A stretch of DNA of 64,000 bases from positions 1,435 to 65,434 of the forward strand of contig DFQX01000087.1 in the NCBI GenBank assembly GCA_002381155.1, given 5' to 3'. This DNA is from Flavobacteriaceae bacterium UBA3478. Lineage in GTDB: Bacteria; Bacteroidota; Bacteroidia; Flavobacteriales; Flavobacteriaceae. Positions 6,548 through 14,452 of the stretch are shown here, piece after piece. Made by a program: the position numbers and the translations under genes. Under the pieces are notes generated by a model. It was not told the origin of the DNA. It saw nothing but the letters and a program-made list of their open reading frames with translations, and ran no database searches. Position 1 is the first letter of the stretch; the number at the start of each line of letters is the position of its first letter.

Positions 6548-8032
6548 TTAACTGAACGCGTCACGATTAGGTAAGGTGTGCTTACTCAGCACCCGTTTAG
6601 CATCAGAAACAACTGCAATTTCTTTTTGAAGACGGTAAAGCTTTTCACTGGCTTCTTTTCTCGCCTGATCTAAATCTACGATAGGGTTTGGATAATCGAT
6701 CCCCTTTCTGAAGTCGTAAAAGATCTCATCCATCGGAGTAAGCGCTGCAGGATTATGAACGAAAGCTTGAGGCAAGTTAGCTAGTTCAGGGACCCACTTT
6801 AAAATGAAAACTGCATCTGGATCGTGCTTCACACTATTCGATAATGGGCTATAAATTCTAATCTGGTTAATCCCTGTTTCGCCTGCTTGCATTTGTAGTT
6901 GCGGATAATGAATTCCAGGTTCAAAATCTAAAAACTGTCGCGCCAAATGTGGACTAATCACTTGCCAAGGTAGCCAAAGATGGTGAGTAGCAAAAGAAAC
7001 TAGAAGTGCACGCATTCTAAAATTAAGATATCCTGTTGCGTTGAGGCATCGCATCGCCGCATCTACAAGTGGCACCCCGGTTAACCCTTTTTCCCAAGCT
7101 TCTAAAAAAATGGTGTTTACTGGCTTGTTCAAGGTGAGATATCCTCGGTTTACCGGCTCGAACTCTATGCGATCTTCCATCTCAAATTTTTGAATAAAAT
7201 GAGCCTGCCAGCGGAGCCTTGATCGAAATGACGATAACGATCTTTTCGGCTTGGCATCCCCATACACCCTTCCCGTAGCTTTAAACACCTCTTTAACAGA
7301 TAAACATCCAAAGGCGATATATGGAGATAGTCTACTGCAGCTAATTCGAGAATCTAACGGCTTAGAAATATGTTTATTATAATTTTTGTAGCGCTCGTTT
7401 AAAAAGCTGTTTAAATAGCGCAACCCCATATTTCTTCCGCCCTTTTGGCGATCGATAGACCGGTCTTCAGGCAGTGTTAATAGGTTCATTTCATTCTCTA
7501 CTTGAGAAAGCATCGTGCTGCTAACGACAGATTTTTTTGACCATAATGGATGTGATATCGAAGATTCCATGAAAGCCTCCCACCGATCTCTCCAACCCAA
7601 TCGATGTTTGAGACCACGCTCTACCCCATTCGTGTTGAACTCTAGCCATGGGATATTTTCTTGTGCTAGTATCCTGGAGAACCTTTTGTCTCGATCGAAA
7701 GTGATTTTTAAACCCGTTTCTCGATAACTATAAACACTAGTTATTTCAAAGGTTTCGCTGAGCCGAATGAAGTTATCTGAAACTGAGCCATACATCTGTA
7801 ACACACGAGCATCCACCGATTGTAAAAAACCATCAAAGTCTTTCAAACTCTCAGAAATGAAGTGCCAGTGTCTTGCGCTATAGTGTTTATCACTGAGCAA
7901 TATCGGTTCGAAATTATACCAAAAAATTACAGGATAGCCCGAATCAATAGCCGCTGAAATCGGCTCGTGATCTTCCCAACGCAAATCACGTTTTAACCAA
8001 ACTAAAGCAACCTTTGGTCTGTTCTTTCTCAT
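6548..8032 (-). CDS. Cryptochrome/photolyase family protein (FAD-binding)
   Basis: N-terminal VWLKRDLRWEDHEPI (photolyase alpha/beta domain). C-terminal TGVPLVDAAMRCLNATGYLNFRMR (FAD-binding-7 signature). Confidence 0.8.
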   Translation of the reverse strand: MRKNRPKVALVWLKRDLRWEDHEPISAAIDSGYPVIFWYNFEPILLSDKHYSARHWHFISESLKDFDGFLQSVDARVLQMYGSVSDNFIRLSETFEITSVYSYRETGLKITFDRDKRFSRILAQENIPWLEFNTNGVERGLKHRLGWRDRWEAFMESSISHPLWSKKSVVSSTMLSQVENEMNLLTLPEDRSIDRQKGGRNMGLRYLNSFLNERYKNYNKHISKPLDSRISCSRLSPYIAFGCLSVKEVFKATGRVYGDAKPKRSLSSFRSRLRWQAHFIQKFEMEDRIEFEPVNRGYLTLNKPVNTIFLEAWEKGLTGVPLVDAAMRCLNATGYLNFRMRALLVSFATHHLWLPWQVISPHLARQFLDFEPGIHYPQLQMQAGETGINQIRIYSPLSNSVKHDPDAVFILKWVPELANLPQAFVHNPAALTPMDEIFYDFRKGIDYPNPIVDLDQARKEASEKLYRLQKEIAVVSDAKRVLSKHTLPNRDAFS

Positions 8033-8049: not shown

Positions 8050-8065
8050 TGTAACATAGGTTACT
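8050..8065. promoter_or_regulatory. Candidate Crp/Fnr-type operator TGTAACATAGGTTACT, upstream of the regulator-sulP operon
   Basis: A 16-bp near-palindrome lying 21 nt upstream of a TACCTTTG -7 box. It is one of four related sites in the cluster. Confidence 0.55.
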
Positions 8066-8086: not shown

Positions 8087-8094
8087 TACCTTTG
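8087..8094 (+). promoter_or_regulatory. Bacteroidota -7 promoter box TACCTTTG (regulator-sulP)
   Basis: Matches TAnnTTTG. A second match, TATTTTTG, lies at 8115-8122. Confidence 0.45.
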
Positions 8095-8147: not shown

Positions 8148-8780
8148 ATGCTTACCGATCTTCAATCTGTTTATGGATCACTTCTTGAAGCCTCTCTACT
8201 TCAAGAGATCAACCAAGTGGGCACCTACAGACAAATACAGGCAGGAACCGAGATCATCAGACCGGGAGAGTATATTAAAAGTATTCCCCTTTTAATCTCA
8301 GGAGCCATTAAAGTAATTCGTGAGTATGACGACGGAGAAGAACTTCTTCTTTACTATGTCGAAGAAGGAAATACTTGTTCCATGTCTATGGCCTGCTGCA
8401 CCGAACAAAAAAGAAGTACCATTAAAGCGATGGCTGAAGTTGACACTCTTTTAATCGTGATTCCTAATCAAAAATTAGAGGAGTGGATAGGTAGATATCC
8501 GAGATGGAGAAGTTTCATCTTTGCGAGTTATCAAAATCGCCTCGAAGAGATGCTATCTAGTCTTGAGAAAGTAGCGTTTGAACGATTAGATGAGAGACTT
8601 ATTGAGTACCTTAAAGAAAAAGGGAGAATCAATGGTGAAAACAGTATTCACCAAACTCATAAAGAAATCGCAGATGAGCTTCATAGTTCTCGAGTGGTAA
8701 TCTCGAGGTTACTTAAAAAATTAGAGAACCTTGGTCATATAAAGCTGCATAGAAACCATATTGAACTTCTTGATCTTTAA
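8148..8780 (+). CDS. Crp/Fnr family transcriptional regulator
   Basis: 210 aa with a beta-roll effector domain followed by a C-terminal HTH (THKEIADELHSSRVVISRLLKKLENLG). It heads the sulfide oxidation cluster. Confidence 0.8.
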   Translation: MLTDLQSVYGSLLEASLLQEINQVGTYRQIQAGTEIIRPGEYIKSIPLLISGAIKVIREYDDGEELLLYYVEEGNTCSMSMACCTEQKRSTIKAMAEVDTLLIVIPNQKLEEWIGRYPRWRSFIFASYQNRLEEMLSSLEKVAFERLDERLIEYLKEKGRINGENSIHQTHKEIADELHSSRVVISRLLKKLENLGHIKLHRNHIELLDL

Positions 8781-8783
8781 GTA

Positions 8784-10517
8784 ATGAAATCTTTCCTTCA
8801 GTTTATTCCAATCCTTCAATGGTTGCCTAATTATAAAAAAGCACATCTTTCAGGTGATCTATCGGCAGGATTAACTGTGGGAATTATGCTTATTCCGCAA
8901 GGAATGGCTTACGCCATGCTCGCCGGTCTACCTCCGGTTTTTGGTTTATATGCCTCTTTGATTCCACAAGTAATCTATGCACTCCTAGGAACTTCTAGAC
9001 AGCTTAGCGTAGCTCCTGTGGCAATGGATTCACTACTAGTAGCAGCGGGCTTAGGAGCGCTTTCACTTAGTGGAATTGAAGAATACACTTCAATGGCTAT
9101 TTTTCTTGCCCTTTTCATGGGAAGTATTCAGTTCTTGCTAGGTATCGTAAAGATGGGATTTTTGGTGAATTTCTTATCAAAACCTGTTATTAGTGGGTTT
9201 ACCTCTGCAGCTGCCTTAATCATCGGGCTTAGCCAATTAAAGCATTTACTAGGAGCGCCTATAGAAAACAGTAATCAAATTCATATTCTATTAGGGAACA
9301 CCGTTGAAGTACTCGATCAGATCAATATCTATGCTATCGTCCTGGGCGTTGCGGCTATTCTAATTATTAAAGCAATCAAGAGATGGGCTCCTAAGATTCC
9401 AGCAGCTTTAGTAGTAACTATCCTTGGAATTGTGATCACCTATGCTTTCAACCTCAGCGAATATGGACTTAATATCGTTAAGGTGGTTCCTTCAGGTCTA
9501 CCAAAGGTTGGGCTGCCAGAATTATCTTTGGATCGCTTAAACGATCTAACTCCTATAGCAGTTACTCTAGCACTTATCGCATTTATGGAGGCCATTTCAG
9601 TAGCAAAGGCAATAGAAGAACGTAAGGGACTTCAAGAGGTGAGGCCGAATCAAGAACTTATCGCGATCGGTATGGCCAATATAGTAGGGTCTATTTTTCA
9701 ATCGTACCCTGTCACTGGAGGATTCTCGAGAACCGCAGTAAACGACCAAGCTGGTGCATCTACACCGCTTTCCTCGATTATTAGTGCGATAATTGTTGGG
9801 CTAACGCTACTATTCTTAACTCCACTTTTTTATCATCTACCCAAAACGGTACTTGCCGCCATTATCATGGTAGCTGTTTTCGGGCTGATTGATTTTGCCT
9901 ACCCTGTTCGACTCCTTAGAAAAAGAAAGGACGAATTTGCTATACTCGTAATTACTTTTCTGACTACGCTAACTATTGGTATTACTGAAGGTATCATCCT
10001 AGGGGTATTAATCTCACTAGGCTTAATGATTTATAGAACATCACAACCTCACTATGCAATTCTAGGAAGGATAAAGGACTCTACCCATTATCGAAATGTG
10101 AAACGATTTGACAAAGAGGTTAGCATCGACCCAGAAGTGCTTTTCTTTCGATTCGATGGCCAATTATATTTCGGAAATAAGGATTATTTCAAAACTGAGC
10201 TTACTCAGGCAGTGGAGTCACATGGCAGCGAATTAAAAGGAATTGTTTTATCGGTAGAGGCGATTAATTATATCGACTCCACTGCTGCTCACATGTTAAG
10301 ACAACTTTTCAGCCAGTTCGAAGAAAGAGGAATTAAGGTTACCATATCAGGACCTATCGGGCCGATTAGAGACATTCTAAAAAGAAGTGAAATCGTTGAT
10401 CTAATAGGAAAGCAGTCCTTCTTTGATAATGCACACGACGCCTTTTTATTTATTAAAGGAGATGAGAATAAAATCGATGAGTATTCTAGAAGAATAGCCT
10501 TAGAATCAAAAGAATAG
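8784..10517 (+). CDS. SulP family inorganic anion transporter with C-terminal STAS domain
   Basis: N-terminal LSGDLSAGLTVGIMLIPQGMAYAMLAGLPP is the SulP signature. A C-terminal STAS-like domain is present (FRFDGQLYFGN...INYIDSTAAHML). Confidence 0.9.
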   Translation: MKSFLQFIPILQWLPNYKKAHLSGDLSAGLTVGIMLIPQGMAYAMLAGLPPVFGLYASLIPQVIYALLGTSRQLSVAPVAMDSLLVAAGLGALSLSGIEEYTSMAIFLALFMGSIQFLLGIVKMGFLVNFLSKPVISGFTSAAALIIGLSQLKHLLGAPIENSNQIHILLGNTVEVLDQINIYAIVLGVAAILIIKAIKRWAPKIPAALVVTILGIVITYAFNLSEYGLNIVKVVPSGLPKVGLPELSLDRLNDLTPIAVTLALIAFMEAISVAKAIEERKGLQEVRPNQELIAIGMANIVGSIFQSYPVTGGFSRTAVNDQAGASTPLSSIISAIIVGLTLLFLTPLFYHLPKTVLAAIIMVAVFGLIDFAYPVRLLRKRKDEFAILVITFLTTLTIGITEGIILGVLISLGLMIYRTSQPHYAILGRIKDSTHYRNVKRFDKEVSIDPEVLFFRFDGQLYFGNKDYFKTELTQAVESHGSELKGIVLSVEAINYIDSTAAHMLRQLFSQFEERGIKVTISGPIGPIRDILKRSEIVDLIGKQSFFDNAHDAFLFIKGDENKIDEYSRRIALESKE

Positions 10518-10522
10518 ACTTT

Positions 10523-10538
10523 TGTAACTTAGGTAACT
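10523..10538. promoter_or_regulatory. Candidate Crp/Fnr-type operator TGTAACTTAGGTAACT, upstream of the PDO-rhodanese gene
   Basis: Same motif, 21 nt upstream of the TAACTTTG -7 box. Confidence 0.5.
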
Positions 10539-10559: not shown

Positions 10560-10567
10560 TAACTTTG
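10560..10567 (+). promoter_or_regulatory. -7 box TAACTTTG (PDO-rhodanese)
   Basis: Matches TAnnTTTG, 21 nt before the ATG at 10589. Confidence 0.45.
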
Positions 10568-10588: not shown

Positions 10589-12007
10589 ATGAAAATAGAA
10601 CAAATTTATACCGGATGTTTAGCTCAAGGAGCTTACTACATTGAAAGCCAGGGAGAGGTAGCTATTATCGATCCTTTAAGAGAAGTGAAACCTTATCTAG
10701 AAAAGGCTAAAGAGGCTAATGCTAAAATTAAGTACATTTTTGAAACTCACTTTCACGCAGACTTCGTGAGTGGACACTTAAGTTTAGCCAAAGAATCAGG
10801 TGCGCCAATTATTTATGGACCGAATGCCAACCCTAGTTTTGATGCCATTATCGCTAAAGATGGTCAAGAATTCAAGTTAGGAGAAGTTACCATCGTCGTG
10901 CTTCACACACCGGGTCACACCATGGAGTCTACTACCTATTTACTGAGAGATGCTAACGGTAAAGATCATGCTATTTTTAGTGGAGATACATTATTCTTAG
11001 GAGATGTTGGACGCCCTGACTTAGCTCAAAAAGCAGCTGATATGACGCAAGAACAATTAGCTGAGACACTTTTTGATAGCTTGAGAACTAAGATCATGCC
11101 TCTTTCAGATGAAATCACTGTTTATCCTGGTCATGGAGCTGGCTCAGCTTGTGGTAAGAACATGATGAAAGAGACCGTTGACACCTTGGGGAATCAGAAA
11201 AAAATGAATTATGCACTTCGTGTAGATATGACTAAGGCAGAGTTTGTAAAAGAAGTTACCGACGGTCTAATGCCTCCACCTCAATACTTCCCATTAAATG
11301 TGAAGATGAATAAGGAAGGATACGATCACTTCGACGAAGTCTTAGAAAGAGGTTCGACTCCTTTAAGCCCCGAGGCTTTTGAGGATGTTGCTAATCAAAC
11401 TGGCGCATTGGTTATAGATGTTCGTCATCAAGATGATTTCGTAAAAGGACACATCCCACGCTCTATTTTCATCGGTTTAGACGGTAGTTTTGCCCCATGG
11501 GTAGGAGCCCTAATTGCTGATGTCGAGCAACCCTTATTACTGGTTACTCCAGAGGGGCGCGAAGAAGAGACTATTACTCGTTTAGCACGTGTAGGTTTCG
11601 ATAATACTCTAGGGTACCTAGAAGGAAGTTTCAAGTCTTGGAAAAATGCAGGTAGAGAATTCGACACCATTGATACCATTTCTGCTGAGGACTTAAAGTC
11701 AAAACTAACATCTAACGACACTGAAGTTTTCGATGTTCGTAAGGATACAGAGTTCTATGCACACCGTATACCTAATGCCAAGAATACCCCACTAGATTAC
11801 CTCAACGACCACTTGGGTGAATTTCCTGAAAACAAGTCGTTCTTCATCCACTGTGCTGGAGGATACCGTTCGGTAATTGCAGGATCGATTCTAAAGAGCA
11901 GAGGGATCCATAACTTCGTTGATATTACCGGTGGATTTAAAGCAATAGAAGCAGCTGAAATAAAGTTGACAGACTATGTGTGTCCGTCAACGATGCCTTC
12001 GAAATAA
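10589..12007 (+). CDS. Persulfide dioxygenase (MBL fold) fused to two rhodanese domains
   Basis: MBL motif THFHADF plus HTPGHT. The C-terminal rhodanese active-site loop is HCAGGYRS. The middle rhodanese-like domain lacks the Cys. The ATG at 10589 is preferred over the TTG at 10565. Confidence 0.8.
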   Translation: MKIEQIYTGCLAQGAYYIESQGEVAIIDPLREVKPYLEKAKEANAKIKYIFETHFHADFVSGHLSLAKESGAPIIYGPNANPSFDAIIAKDGQEFKLGEVTIVVLHTPGHTMESTTYLLRDANGKDHAIFSGDTLFLGDVGRPDLAQKAADMTQEQLAETLFDSLRTKIMPLSDEITVYPGHGAGSACGKNMMKETVDTLGNQKKMNYALRVDMTKAEFVKEVTDGLMPPPQYFPLNVKMNKEGYDHFDEVLERGSTPLSPEAFEDVANQTGALVIDVRHQDDFVKGHIPRSIFIGLDGSFAPWVGALIADVEQPLLLVTPEGREEETITRLARVGFDNTLGYLEGSFKSWKNAGREFDTIDTISAEDLKSKLTSNDTEVFDVRKDTEFYAHRIPNAKNTPLDYLNDHLGEFPENKSFFIHCAGGYRSVIAGSILKSRGIHNFVDITGGFKAIEAAEIKLTDYVCPSTMPSK

Positions 12008-12030
12008 ACCTAATAATTTCAAGTTTACTG

Positions 12031-12061
12031 CCCTGTGTAACTTTGGTTGCACAGGGTTTTT
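12031..12061 (+). terminator. Intrinsic terminator after the PDO-rhodanese gene
   Basis: Stem CCCTGTG (12031-12037) pairs with CACAGGG (12050-12056), followed by TTTTT. Confidence 0.6.
12036..12051. promoter_or_regulatory. Candidate Crp/Fnr-type operator TGTAACTTTGGTTGCA, upstream of sqr (embedded in the terminator hairpin)
   Basis: Same motif, 21 nt upstream of a TAGCTTTT -7-like box. Confidence 0.4.
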
Positions 12062-12072
12062 CATTTTATCAC

Positions 12073-12080
12073 TAGCTTTT
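12073..12080 (+). promoter_or_regulatory. -7-like box TAGCTTTT (sqr), imperfect
   Basis: 7 of 8 informative positions match TAnnTTTG. Confidence 0.3.
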
Positions 12081-12109: not shown

Positions 12110-13393
12110 ATGTCAACTTCTTATCAAGTTCTAATTATTGGGGGAGGTACTGCTGGTATCATGGCAGCATCTCGTTTACAGAAATTAGATTCATCACTCT
12201 CAATCGCCATCATTGAGCCTGCCGACACTCACTATTACCAACCCGCGTGGACTTTAGTTGGTGCTGGAGCTTTTGATTATAAAAAAACTGCTAAACCTAT
12301 GGCAGAGGTAATACCAAAAGGCATTTCGTGGGTGAAAGACTTTGCGGTTTCATTCGATCCTGATAACAACGCTGTGAGAACGAAAGAAAGTGGTGACATC
12401 TCCTATGACTACTTAATTGTAGCTCCAGGGCTTGTTATGGAACCTAGTATGATTAAAGGCTTACCTGAAGCTCTTGATAAAGGGGTTGTTTGCAGTAACT
12501 ACACCGATCCAGAGCACACCTGGAAATTGTTACAAAACTTCAAGGGAGGTAATGCGATTTTTACTCAGCCAGCGACACCCATCAAATGTGGTGGTGCTCC
12601 ACAGAAAATTGCTTATCTGGCAGCAGATTATTTGAAAAAGCAAGGACTATCTAAGAAATCTAATGTCATGTTTGCTACCCCGGGTACCGTAATTTTTGGT
12701 GTACCGGTAATCAGAGAAACTTTAATGAAGGTCATTGGCAAATACAATATTAAGTTTCATCCGTACAATACGCCCGTAGAAATCGATTCAAAGAAAAAAA
12801 TCGCTTATTTCCTTGATAAGACTCCAGAAGATCACGCTTGTTTTGTTCAAAAAGAAGGAAGCTCCTTCGGTACAGATAATGTGTTCGGCGCAACAAAAAC
12901 TGAAGATGGTAGAATTGCGGTACCATTCGACTTTCTCCATATTGCTCCACCTCAAGCAGCACCAAAATTTATTAGAGAGTCGGCCCTATCCAATGATGGG
13001 GGCTGGTTGAGCGTTGATAAGCACACCCTACAGCACACCAAGTATGCTAACGTATTTGGATTAGGTGATGTAGCCGGGTTACCGACGGCAAAAACAGGAG
13101 CTGCAATTCGCAAGCAAGTTCCTGTAGTATTAGACAACATCTTACGTTTAATCAAATCAAATACTATCGGTTCTAAATCTTATAATGGCTACTCATCTTG
13201 TCCGTTGGTTACAGGGTACGGTAAGATGGTACTTGCAGAATTTGATTACGACAACAACTTTACTCCAGATCCAAAACTCAAACAAATGCTTGTATTCGAT
13301 TCTTCGAAAGAACATTGGAGATTATGGATGTTGAAAAAGTTCGGACTTCCCTATCTATATTGGAATAAAATGCTAAAAGGAGAAGACGTATAA
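12110..13393 (+). CDS. sqr: Sulfide:quinone oxidoreductase, type II (SQRDL-like)
   Basis: FAD motif IIGGGTAG. HYYQPAWTLVGAG, KCGGAPQK and YSSCPLVTGYGKMVLAEFDY match the redox-Cys regions of type II/mitochondrial-type SQR as I recall them. Confidence 0.85.
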   Translation: MSTSYQVLIIGGGTAGIMAASRLQKLDSSLSIAIIEPADTHYYQPAWTLVGAGAFDYKKTAKPMAEVIPKGISWVKDFAVSFDPDNNAVRTKESGDISYDYLIVAPGLVMEPSMIKGLPEALDKGVVCSNYTDPEHTWKLLQNFKGGNAIFTQPATPIKCGGAPQKIAYLAADYLKKQGLSKKSNVMFATPGTVIFGVPVIRETLMKVIGKYNIKFHPYNTPVEIDSKKKIAYFLDKTPEDHACFVQKEGSSFGTDNVFGATKTEDGRIAVPFDFLHIAPPQAAPKFIRESALSNDGGWLSVDKHTLQHTKYANVFGLGDVAGLPTAKTGAAIRKQVPVVLDNILRLIKSNTIGSKSYNGYSSCPLVTGYGKMVLAEFDYDNNFTPDPKLKQMLVFDSSKEHWRLWMLKKFGLPYLYWNKMLKGEDV

Positions 13394-13403
13394 TTTTTAA
13401 ATA

Positions 13404-13419
13404 TGTAACCTAGATTACA
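13404..13419. promoter_or_regulatory. Candidate Crp/Fnr-type operator TGTAACCTAGATTACA, upstream of yeeE/yedE
   Basis: Same motif, 20 nt upstream of the TATTTTTG -7 box. Confidence 0.55.
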
Positions 13420-13439: not shown

Positions 13440-13447
13440 TATTTTTG
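13440..13447 (+). promoter_or_regulatory. -7 box TATTTTTG (yeeE/yedE pair)
   Basis: Matches TAnnTTTG, 20 nt before the ATG at 13468. Confidence 0.45.
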
Positions 13448-13467: not shown

Positions 13468-14025
13468 ATGGAATTTATAATGCAACCCTGGGCATGGTAT
13501 GTTTCTGGCCCACTCATCGCTCTCGTAATGTTTTTCCTAATCTTCTCAGGAAGAAACTTCGGTATGTCTGGTAATTTGCGCATCATGTGCGCCGCTCTAA
13601 GTGGAGACAAAGCTTGTGACTTCTTTCGCTTTGATTGGAAAGCTCAGCGTTGGAATTTAGTTTTTGCACTTGGAGCAATTTTAGGGGGCTTCGTGGCCGC
13701 TGAATTTCTAAGCACCGACACATCAGTAGCAATTACAGAGGGTACGATCGAAAAACTAGCCCAGTATGGTTTTACAGACGGTGGCGCCGCCTATCTCCCA
13801 GAACAACTATTCAGTATAGATTCTCTTAGCAACCCCTATACATTACTGTTGCTAGCCATCGGAGGGTTTCTTGTTGGATTTGGTTCTAGATATGCAGGAG
13901 GATGTACTTCTGGCCACGCGATCTCTGGATTAAGCGACCTTCAACTTCCTTCACTCATTGCGGTGATCGGTTTCTTCATTGGAGGTCTCTTTATGGTTCA
14001 TTTCCTATTTCCAATTTTATTCTAA
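13468..14025 (+). CDS. YeeE/YedE family sulfur-compound transport protein
   Basis: Multi-pass membrane protein with the GGCTSGHAISG motif typical of YeeE/YedE. Confidence 0.8.
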   Translation: MEFIMQPWAWYVSGPLIALVMFFLIFSGRNFGMSGNLRIMCAALSGDKACDFFRFDWKAQRWNLVFALGAILGGFVAAEFLSTDTSVAITEGTIEKLAQYGFTDGGAAYLPEQLFSIDSLSNPYTLLLLAIGGFLVGFGSRYAGGCTSGHAISGLSDLQLPSLIAVIGFFIGGLFMVHFLFPILF

Positions 14026-14038
14026 AAACGCTTTATCT

Positions 14039-14452
14039 ATGAAAACACTTAAATATTTAATTACAGGTATCGCATTTGGAGTTATTATGTTCAAATCAGA
14101 AGCGGCTTCTTGGTTTAGAATTTTTGAAATGTTCCAATTTAATTCGTTCCACATGTACGGAATTATTGGTTCAGCTCTTGCTACCGGAGTCATAGGGATT
14201 CAACTTATTAAACGTCTAAAACTTAAATCCTTTTCTGGAGAAGAAATTATTATACCACCGAAGGCAAAAGGATGGAAAAACTATTTGTTTGGAGGTATTT
14301 TATTTGGTTTAGGATGGGGGCTTGCCGGAGCATGTCCTGGTCCAATTTTTACGTTAATTGGAGCAGGTTTCCTTCCACTTATTTTAGTCCTGGCATTTGC
14401 AGTACTCGGCACCTTCGTTTACGGAATTCTTAGACCAAAACTACCTCACTAA
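14039..14452 (+). CDS. YeeE/YedE family protein (second half-size subunit)
   Basis: Membrane protein with GLAGACPGP. It is paired with the preceding gene. The ATG at 14039 (MKTLKYL) is preferred over the overlapping upstream start. Confidence 0.75.
   Translation: MKTLKYLITGIAFGVIMFKSEAASWFRIFEMFQFNSFHMYGIIGSALATGVIGIQLIKRLKLKSFSGEEIIIPPKAKGWKNYLFGGILFGLGWGLAGACPGPIFTLIGAGFLPLILVLAFAVLGTFVYGILRPKLPH

Follow-up and report, generated by a model that had tools for sequence, protein, structure and literature searches.

What does a transcription factor of the Crp/Fnr superfamily sense when it heads a cluster of sulfide-oxidation genes and keeps its only cysteines in the effector cassette? This question is raised by the window analysed here, i.e. 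the whole stretch of 64,000 nucleotides from the marine flavobacterium Flavobacteriaceae bacterium UBA3478, in which the gene at 8148..8780 encodes such a regulator of 210 aa (coordinates refer to the forward strand unless stated otherwise).

Fold and cysteine patch of the regulator

The initial annotation took the protein for a Crp/Fnr regulator, and Pfam bears this out: PF00027 (cNMP_binding) matches residues 28-116 with 41.3 bits (cut-off 27.5), and PF13545 (HTH_Crp_2) matches residues 149-210 with 37.4 bits (cut-off 27). The architecture is a cNMP-type beta-roll followed by a long C helix and a C-terminal HTH, and both domains expected of the superfamily, the cNMP-type beta-roll and the Crp-type winged HTH, are present. 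The four-helix bundle of CsoR and the winged-helix fold of ArsR were rejected, since Pfam gives Crp-type domains alone. An AlphaFold model built from a shallow alignment of 21 sequences had a pLDDT below 50 over residues 73-90, which was remedied by an alignment of 143 sequences (pLDDT 90.7). The latter model comprises an eight-strand roll, a strand at 65-72, the long C helix (118-162), and a short helix over residues 81-85, which bears Cys83 and Cys84; residues 76 and 89 each form a single bridge, probably where the cassette loop has its base. Its Foldseek matches are Crp/Fnr structures only, with 3dv8, 4ev0, FNR, NtcA, and CRP at the top, and those to CRP, FNR, and NtcA are full-length. The predicted C helix (118-162) is accompanied by a 16-bp palindromic box kept at the promoters of the regulator. 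In this helix, the Arg131 codon (CGC, 8538..8540) aligns with R123 of CRP and with the 2-oxoglutarate-binding Arg of NtcA; the residue is invariant in the 143-sequence alignment, and all six Arg codons occur at this position among 112 related loci. The region of the HTH recognition helix, HSSRVVISRLLK (8682..8717, from the translation and the alignment with CRP), reads R-V-x-x-S-R where CRP has R-E-x-x-G-R, and its residues R182, V184, S186, and R187 are invariant in the alignments of the regulator.

The translation of 8148-8780 contains EEGNTCSMSMACCTEQKRS, and the equivalent of the phosphate-binding cassette, G74-S90 (GNTCSMSMACCTEQKRS, 8367..8417), was delimited by hhalign with CRP and by HMMER alignments with 3dv8 and NtcA. 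The codon of Cys77 (TGT, 8376..8378) lies at the base of the cassette loop, and the adjacent codons of Cys83 and Cys84 (TGC TGC, 8394..8399, i.e. 8394-8396 and 8397-8399) belong to the cassette helix of the model. These are the sole cysteines of the protein. The C-x5-CC patch at 8376-8399 is thus confirmed from the DNA and the translation, and its proposed register with the ligand segment of CRP was reproduced by profile-profile alignment with the E. coli protein: G74=G67, C77=I70, S78=G71, M79=E72, C83=F76, C84=E77, R89=R82, S90=S83, and R131=R123. The cAMP-contacting residues of CRP are G71, E72, R82, S83, T127, and S128. The idea that the cysteines occupy the very sites of cAMP contact therefore needs correction: although the cassette does contain them, their counterparts in CRP are I70, F76, and E77, which flank the contact residues. 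The suggestion that the effector domain is not of the nucleotide type fares better, as the cNMP signature is lost (G71/E72 are replaced by S78/M79). Since the G-E ribose/phosphate pair is missing and the position equivalent to R82 (residue 89) varies between K, R, Q, and P among relatives, nucleotide binding is unlikely.

Established sensor types of the superfamily were considered and rejected. For cAMP-type sensing, the G-E...R-[ST] signature is absent and the match to NF008732 reaches 49.8 bits against a cut-off of 266. For FNR-type [4Fe-4S] sensing, cysteines are found only at 77, 83, and 84, and NF008365 gives 27.3 against a cut-off of 228; the regulator has no N-terminal Cys, as the initial annotation had remarked in setting it apart from FNR. 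Identity with NtcA was dismissed from the TIGR03697 score (41.7 bits, cut-off 244.95). Haem sensing of the CooA type was dismissed because, of the CooA ligands Cys75, His77, and Pro2, the first two have S78 and S80 as their counterparts in the hhalign alignment, for which the CooA sequence was verified against 1FT9.

The sulfur gene cluster and its predicted operators

The sqr/pdo setting given in the initial annotation is supported by Pfam and NCBIfam, as the regulator heads a sulP / pdo-rhodanese / sqr / yeeE cluster. Four nt past its stop begins the gene of a SulP-STAS anion transporter (8784..10517; Pfam Sulfate_transp and STAS, TIGR00815 over cut-off). It is followed by a gene for a persulfide-dioxygenase-like (PDO) MBL protein with two rhodanese domains, resembling CstB (10589..12007; Pfam Lactamase_B and twice Rhodanese), then by a sulfide:quinone oxidoreductase gene (12110..13393; Pyr_redox_2 and a partial match to the NCBIfam SQR model) and by a split YeeE/YedE (TsuA-like) transporter of sulfur compounds (13468..14452; Pfam Sulf_transp and DUF6691, weak NCBIfam TsuA matches), whose halves span 13468-14025 and about 14039-14452. 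The mechanical ORF of the PDO-rhodanese gene opens at TTG 10565, within a predicted -7 box (10560-10567); because of this overlap, and because homologues start with MKIEQIY, the start is likely ATG 10589.

Each intergenic gap of the cluster carries one predicted operator of the consensus TGTAAC-N4-GTTACA, a 16-bp palindrome, which makes four in 6 kb. Operator 1, TGTAACATAGGTTACT (8050..8065), lies 21 nt 5' of the -7 box TACCTTTG (8087-8094) in the promoter of the regulator-sulP unit, implying autoregulation, and is kept in orthologous loci. Operator 2, TGTAACTTAGGTAACT (10523..10538), is 21 nt 5' of TAACTTTG (10560-10567) in the pdo-rhodanese promoter; operator 3, TGTAACTTTGGTTGCA (12036..12051), is 21 nt 5' of TAGCTTTT (12073-12080) in the sqr promoter; and operator 4, TGTAACCTAGATTACA (13404..13419), is 20 nt 5' of TATTTTTG (13440-13447) in the yeeE/yedE promoter. 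A scan of the whole window allowing up to 2 mismatches found 5 matches against 2.1 expected. Every operator of the cluster stands 20-21 nt 5' of a -7 box of the Bacteroidota type, TAnnTTT[G/T], and a -33 TTG is absent; across 104 related loci TAnnTTTG occurs exactly 21 nt 3' of 116 operator matches, where 0.26 are expected per distance. If the Bacteroidota -7 box spans about -12 to -5, the operator centre falls near -41.5, the position of a class II activator. This activator-like geometry fits a recruitment of RNA polymerase that replaces the -33 element. On strong comparative evidence, the regulator is predicted to bind TGTAAC-N4-GTTACA boxes whose centres lie some 41.5 bp 5' of the likely transcription starts, and we infer activation rather than repression, from geometry only.

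Three more promoters with an operator and a -7 box occur elsewhere in the genome (G000:C19:19894 on the reverse strand; G000:C33:14695 and G000:C53:16369 on the forward strand), and behind them are genes for a single-domain rhodanese (101 aa), a DUF983 protein (132 aa, two CxxC pairs), and a thioredoxin (116 aa). These genes outside the window are probable distant members of the regulon. Since rhodanese, DUF983, and thioredoxin genes also neighbour the regulator in other genomes, the distant operators provide an independent cross-check. Around regulators of the clade with all three cysteines, the GTAAC-N4-GTTAC core occurs at 1.31 sites per 8 kb vs 0.27 in shuffled sequences, whereas near regulators that lack Cys84 (L110-L153, the CCx class described below) it is not enriched (0.25 vs 0.27 shuffled); the latter probably recognise a variant box.

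The gene content around the regulator is similar across the phylum. A PDO-rhodanese gene lies downstream in nearly all related loci with enough downstream DNA, down to 51% identity, and the neighbour clusters that Pfam could name comprise rhodanese, PDO-rhodanese, TauE, the YeeE halves, thioredoxin, and OsmC, as well as SQR, SulP, DUF983, Usp, and cytochrome bd. Taken together, these data make it very probable that the regulator governs genes of sulfide and reactive-sulfur metabolism, and its neighbours predicted to detoxify sulfide are almost certainly activated by it.

Some features of these loci deserve mention in their own right. A 12-pair terminator-like hairpin with a T run (12030-12057) follows the PDO-rhodanese gene and is built around the sqr operator (12036-12051), so that one stretch may serve as both an RNA terminator and a DNA operator. 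A gene of the photolyase/cryptochrome family (6548-8032, reverse strand) is read away from the regulator. As just 17 nt separate the start of this gene from operator 1, the box could act on it too, and photolyase homologues are found 5-7 kb from regulators in L088, L099, L101, and L121. Cytochrome bd oxidase genes (CydA/CydB) recur beside regulators of the family (L104, L111, L117, L112, L114, L097, and L109). As bd oxidases are sulfide-resistant, CydA/CydB may share the stress response of the regulator. Small HMA-domain (CGGC) proteins adjoin PDO-rhodanese genes in four loci (L066, L068, L070, and L118), an unexpected place for a metallochaperone fold, and they may carry sulfur.

Conservation of the three cysteines

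Among close relatives, Cys77, Cys83, and Cys84 are invariant, in the 21 sequences aligned initially and then in all 143 (49-98% identity), an alignment with a mean column identity of 71%. They are likewise present at all three positions in 112/112 related loci (50-100% identity), in which TGT and TGC are used 69/43, 68/44, and 75/37 times at the three positions, respectively. Both codons being in use, the residue is retained although its codon varies. The family is otherwise poor in cysteines outside the cassette: 39/46 proteins of the CCC class (named, like the others, by the residues at 77, 83, and 84) have exactly 3 Cys, 13/20 of the CCx class exactly 2, and 13/20 of the CGG class exactly 1. 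The only other cNMP-domain protein of the genome has no cassette Cys. Judged from these alignments, the three-Cys pattern is not due to chance. In one homologue (L079, G275:C18), Phe replaces Cys77 (FCC), and the match contains an in-frame TAA. This regulator is probably a decaying copy, though genes for TauE, PDO, and YeeE still follow it.

In the wider family the three positions part company. Among 150 representatives at about 32-55% identity, Cys77 is present in 148 and the pair Cys83-Cys84 jointly in only 54. A tree of the regulators, computed without the cassette columns, contains a group of 30 rows with Cys77 alone, mostly C...GG with His86 and His129, and a second group of 73 rows in which nearly all have Cys83. 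Inside the latter is a sister clade of 21 rows (SH-aLRT 93), of which 20 read C-C-[A/S/T/N/M], i.e. lost Cys84 or never had it. All 66 rows of the CCC and CCx groups have both Cys77 and Cys83, and Cys83 is absent from the Cys77-only clade. This last clade (loci L123-L163, CGG class) has a conserved His at 86 (17/20) and at 129 (19/20); such a possible Cys/His site suggests that the chemistry of sensing differs there and perhaps relies on a metal or haem. Its neighbours are often rhodanese-thioredoxin-OsmC genes adjoining methylmalonyl-CoA mutase.

We compared these classes with gene context in 100 regulator loci drawn from a sample of 400 Bacteroidota genomes. Sulfur genes lie at most 4 genes from the regulator in 41/45 CCC, 16/20 CCx, 12/20 CGG, 0/3 CxC, and 3/12 other loci; the neighbours are TauE/PDO-rhodanese in the 16 linked CCx loci and rhodanese, PDO, or TauE in the 12 linked Cys77-only loci. 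When pooled, linkage amounts to 59/67 with Cys83 vs 16/36 without it, and two paralogues without Cys83 (CNC) have no sulfur neighbours. Yet the association of Cys83 or Cys84 with sulfur context includes only 2-4 independent pairs (about 3 contrasts), too few for significance, so that the relation of Cys83 to sulfur genes stands as a description. The prediction that the cysteines would be conserved in cluster-linked orthologues held for the 112 related loci, but Cys84, or both Cys83 and Cys84, are missing in wider clades. The vicinal CC, which had been given weight as a sensor arrangement, is not a needed feature, since the CCx and the Cys77-only clades are also linked to sulfur genes. Because a clade linked to the cluster does without Cys84, conservation centres on Cys77 and Cys83; the functional core is likely C-x5-C, not the vicinal CC, and Cys77 alone is the hallmark of the family.

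Candidate sensing mechanism and known systems

The regulator is a candidate sensor of reactive sulfur, whose sensing chemistry we infer from the regulon. The best reading of the data, which we regard as about evenly poised between right and wrong, is that the cassette cysteines sense sulfane sulfur through their thiols. That the cysteines act as the sensor is the most economical reading, because they are invariant, because other cysteines are depleted, because the nucleotide signature is lost, and because the Ser of the anion hole and the Arg of the C helix are kept. The protein would then be a Crp/Fnr-fold activator devoted to a regulon for the detoxification of sulfide and reactive sulfur, its nucleotide pocket having been turned into a thiol switch. 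Sulfane sulfur (persulfide or polysulfide made from sulfide, e.g. by SQR) would react with the cassette thiols, and Cys77, just before the anion hole of backbone amides and Ser90 that holds the cyclic phosphate in CRP, would become persulfidated and be joined thereafter by a di-, tri-, or tetrasulfide link to Cys83 of the cassette helix, with Cys84 as an alternative or resolving partner in the CCC clade. The covalent change would remodel the cassette in the manner of cAMP in CRP or 2-oxoglutarate in NtcA, and the signal would pass via Arg131 of the C helix to the HTH, switching on DNA binding or activation. The thioredoxin of the regulon would reduce the bridge and reset the switch. In known dedicated reactive-sulfur sensors a Cys pair is bridged by sulfane sulfur (PMC13467558), and PMC10044876 reports that thioredoxin resets SqrR. 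The bridge cannot be the mechanism of the whole family, since Cys84 is dispensable and since a clade often linked to the cluster has neither Cys83 nor Cys84. In CRP, the place of Cys77 is taken by I70, a hydrophobic residue of the core type, and small residues always fill positions 83 and 84, so part of the conservation of the cysteines may be structural. A fuller version of this reading is more tentative, and we hold it somewhat short of an even chance: the protein would be the founding member of Crp/Fnr-type reactive-sulfur sensors and the main sulfide-response regulator of Bacteroidota, in which the Cys persulfide or polysulfide acts as a tethered ligand that brings anionic sulfur into the old phosphate hole, engages the Arg of the C helix, and switches on a class II activator.

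These readings must be weighed against others. The cysteines could ligate a cofactor (an Fe-S cluster, a haem, or a metal ion), with sulfide or polysulfide sensed or made at the cofactor instead of at free thiols. Relatives do use cofactors ([4Fe-4S] in FNR, haem in CooA), the CooA ligands C75/H77 align with S78/S80 next to Cys77 and its C80 with Cys83, the Cys77-only clade keeps the two His noted above, and three Cys with two Met within 8 residues resemble soft-metal sites. Yet the sensor domain of the CCC clade offers no fourth conserved ligand, Met is not retained at positions 79 and 81 across the wider family, Ser stands where CooA has its haem ligands, and vicinal cysteines, to our knowledge, rarely ligate one cluster together. 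We judge this reading rather unlikely, even though PMC12344995 reports that haem on SqrR/YgaV turns H2S into polysulfide. It is also unlikely that the cysteines merely line a remodelled anion pocket in which a small sulfur compound is bound non-covalently, be it sulfite, thiosulfate, HS-, or a persulfide or thiol of low molecular weight. In favour of such a pocket are the retention of S90 (S83 of CRP) and R131 (R123 of CRP, the 2-oxoglutarate Arg of NtcA), a K or R at 88/89 in most orthologues, the position of NtcA, a small-anion sensor, as the closest characterised relative by profile, and the transporters of sulfite, thiosulfate, and anions in the regulon (TauE, YeeE, and SulP); moreover, PrfA, another member of the family, is activated by glutathione. 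Yet the binding of an anion needs no invariant Cys in proteins otherwise free of them, and the equivalent of R82 varies (K/R/Q/P).

The specificity for sulfur could also be questioned, for a general sensor of thiol oxidation or electrophiles (disulfide stress, peroxide, or quinones) could work by a plain disulfide in the cassette. Thioredoxin, OsmC/Ohr-type peroxidase, and Usp genes are neighbours in many genomes, especially in the Cys77-only clade, and the FNR-like FLP of Lactobacillus casei, on which Gostick is said to have reported in 1998, would be a precedent for a thiol-disulfide switch. We find this reading quite unlikely, because SQR, PDO-rhodanese, rhodanese, YeeE, and SulP, which make up the regulon here and in the clade, are enzymes and carriers for the oxidation of sulfide and not for peroxide defence. 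Finally, the cysteines could be purely structural and the regulator constitutive, or governed by its abundance or through a partner protein. Some Crp/Fnr proteins work without a ligand, and the hydrophobic counterpart of Cys77 in CRP and the small residues at 83/84 are compatible with packing. This is highly improbable given Cys77 in 148/150 representatives, three invariant Cys with synonymous turnover, and the depletion of other Cys, unlike packing residues replaceable by A, S, or G in sister clades.

Sensing by the cassette thiols, if true, would add a new family to the sensors of reactive sulfur and would show a classic allosteric pocket re-used for covalent signalling, with a class II activator logic opposite to that of the repressors CstR, SqrR, and BigR. 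With a defined operator, a regulon, and three mutable residues, it would open the sulfide response of flavobacteria from sea and soil to direct tests, and the regulator could supply an activator-type part for sulfide biosensors. Our literature searches found no description of the regulator family, no reactive-sulfur sensor of the Crp/Fnr family, and no dedicated reactive-sulfur sensor or sulfide regulator for Bacteroidota. A 2026 review assigns reactive-sulfur sensors to the CsoR, ArsR, and Fis superfamilies (PMC13467558), and PDO and SQR genes are common in Bacteroidota (PMC5702731). The Crp/Fnr scaffold and the class II logic are known; the thiol patch in the cassette and the reactive-sulfur regulon are new.

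Among proteins of the same fold, E. coli CRP has the same domain order, and its cassette, C-helix Arg, and HTH are alignable with those of the regulator; its class II sites are likewise 16-bp palindromes, of the TGTnA-N6-TnACA type, centred at about -41.5. The regulator differs from CRP by its three cassette cysteines, the lost cAMP signature, the half-site TGTAAC, and the R-V-x-x-S-R helix. NtcA, the best characterised profile relative after 3dv8, is also a class II-type activator and holds a small-anion effector between the cassette and the C-helix Arg that aligns with R131, but it has no cassette cysteines and serves another regulon in another phylum. Of the solved structures, 3dv8, an uncharacterised Crp/Fnr protein of Eubacterium rectale, is the nearest both in sequence (E 1e-20) and in fold; its sequence has Cys at the positions of Cys77 and Cys83 (C-x5-C), whereas it has Ile at that of Cys84 and comes from a different phylum. 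The haem-based CO sensor CooA bears its sensor residues in the same cassette strand (C75/H77, at the level of S78/S80), but these ligands are not conserved in the regulator. In FLP-type members, activity is set by thiol-disulfide chemistry and not by a cofactor or a nucleotide; their cysteines belong to the N-terminus and to the C helix or DNA-binding domain, instead of the cassette, and they respond to oxygen or redox instead of controlling sulfide-oxidation genes. The FLP of Lactobacillus casei is reported as active without an Fe-S cluster, and PMC3590769 mentions CysR as a cyanobacterial sulfur-stress regulator of the Crp/Fnr family.

The known dedicated reactive-sulfur regulators are CstR (CsoR family), SqrR/BigR (ArsR family), and FisR, a sigma-54 activator (PMC13467558). 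They control sqr, pdo/cstB, rhodanese, tauE, and yeeE/yedE genes and sense through a conserved Cys pair (PMC7315123, PMC13467558), although the regulatory cysteines are not conserved in the FisR of A. baumannii (PMC7315123). The regulator shares with this functional class a conserved Cys pair and, from comparative genomics only, the control of sulfide genes. The analogy with CstR and SqrR drawn in the initial annotation thus holds for function but not for arrangement, because the Cys pairs of CstR, SqrR, and BigR are far apart in sequence and not vicinal (PMC13467558). The folds are unrelated to that of the regulator, and CstR, SqrR, and BigR are repressors released by modification, whereas FisR is an activator, as is predicted for the regulator described here.
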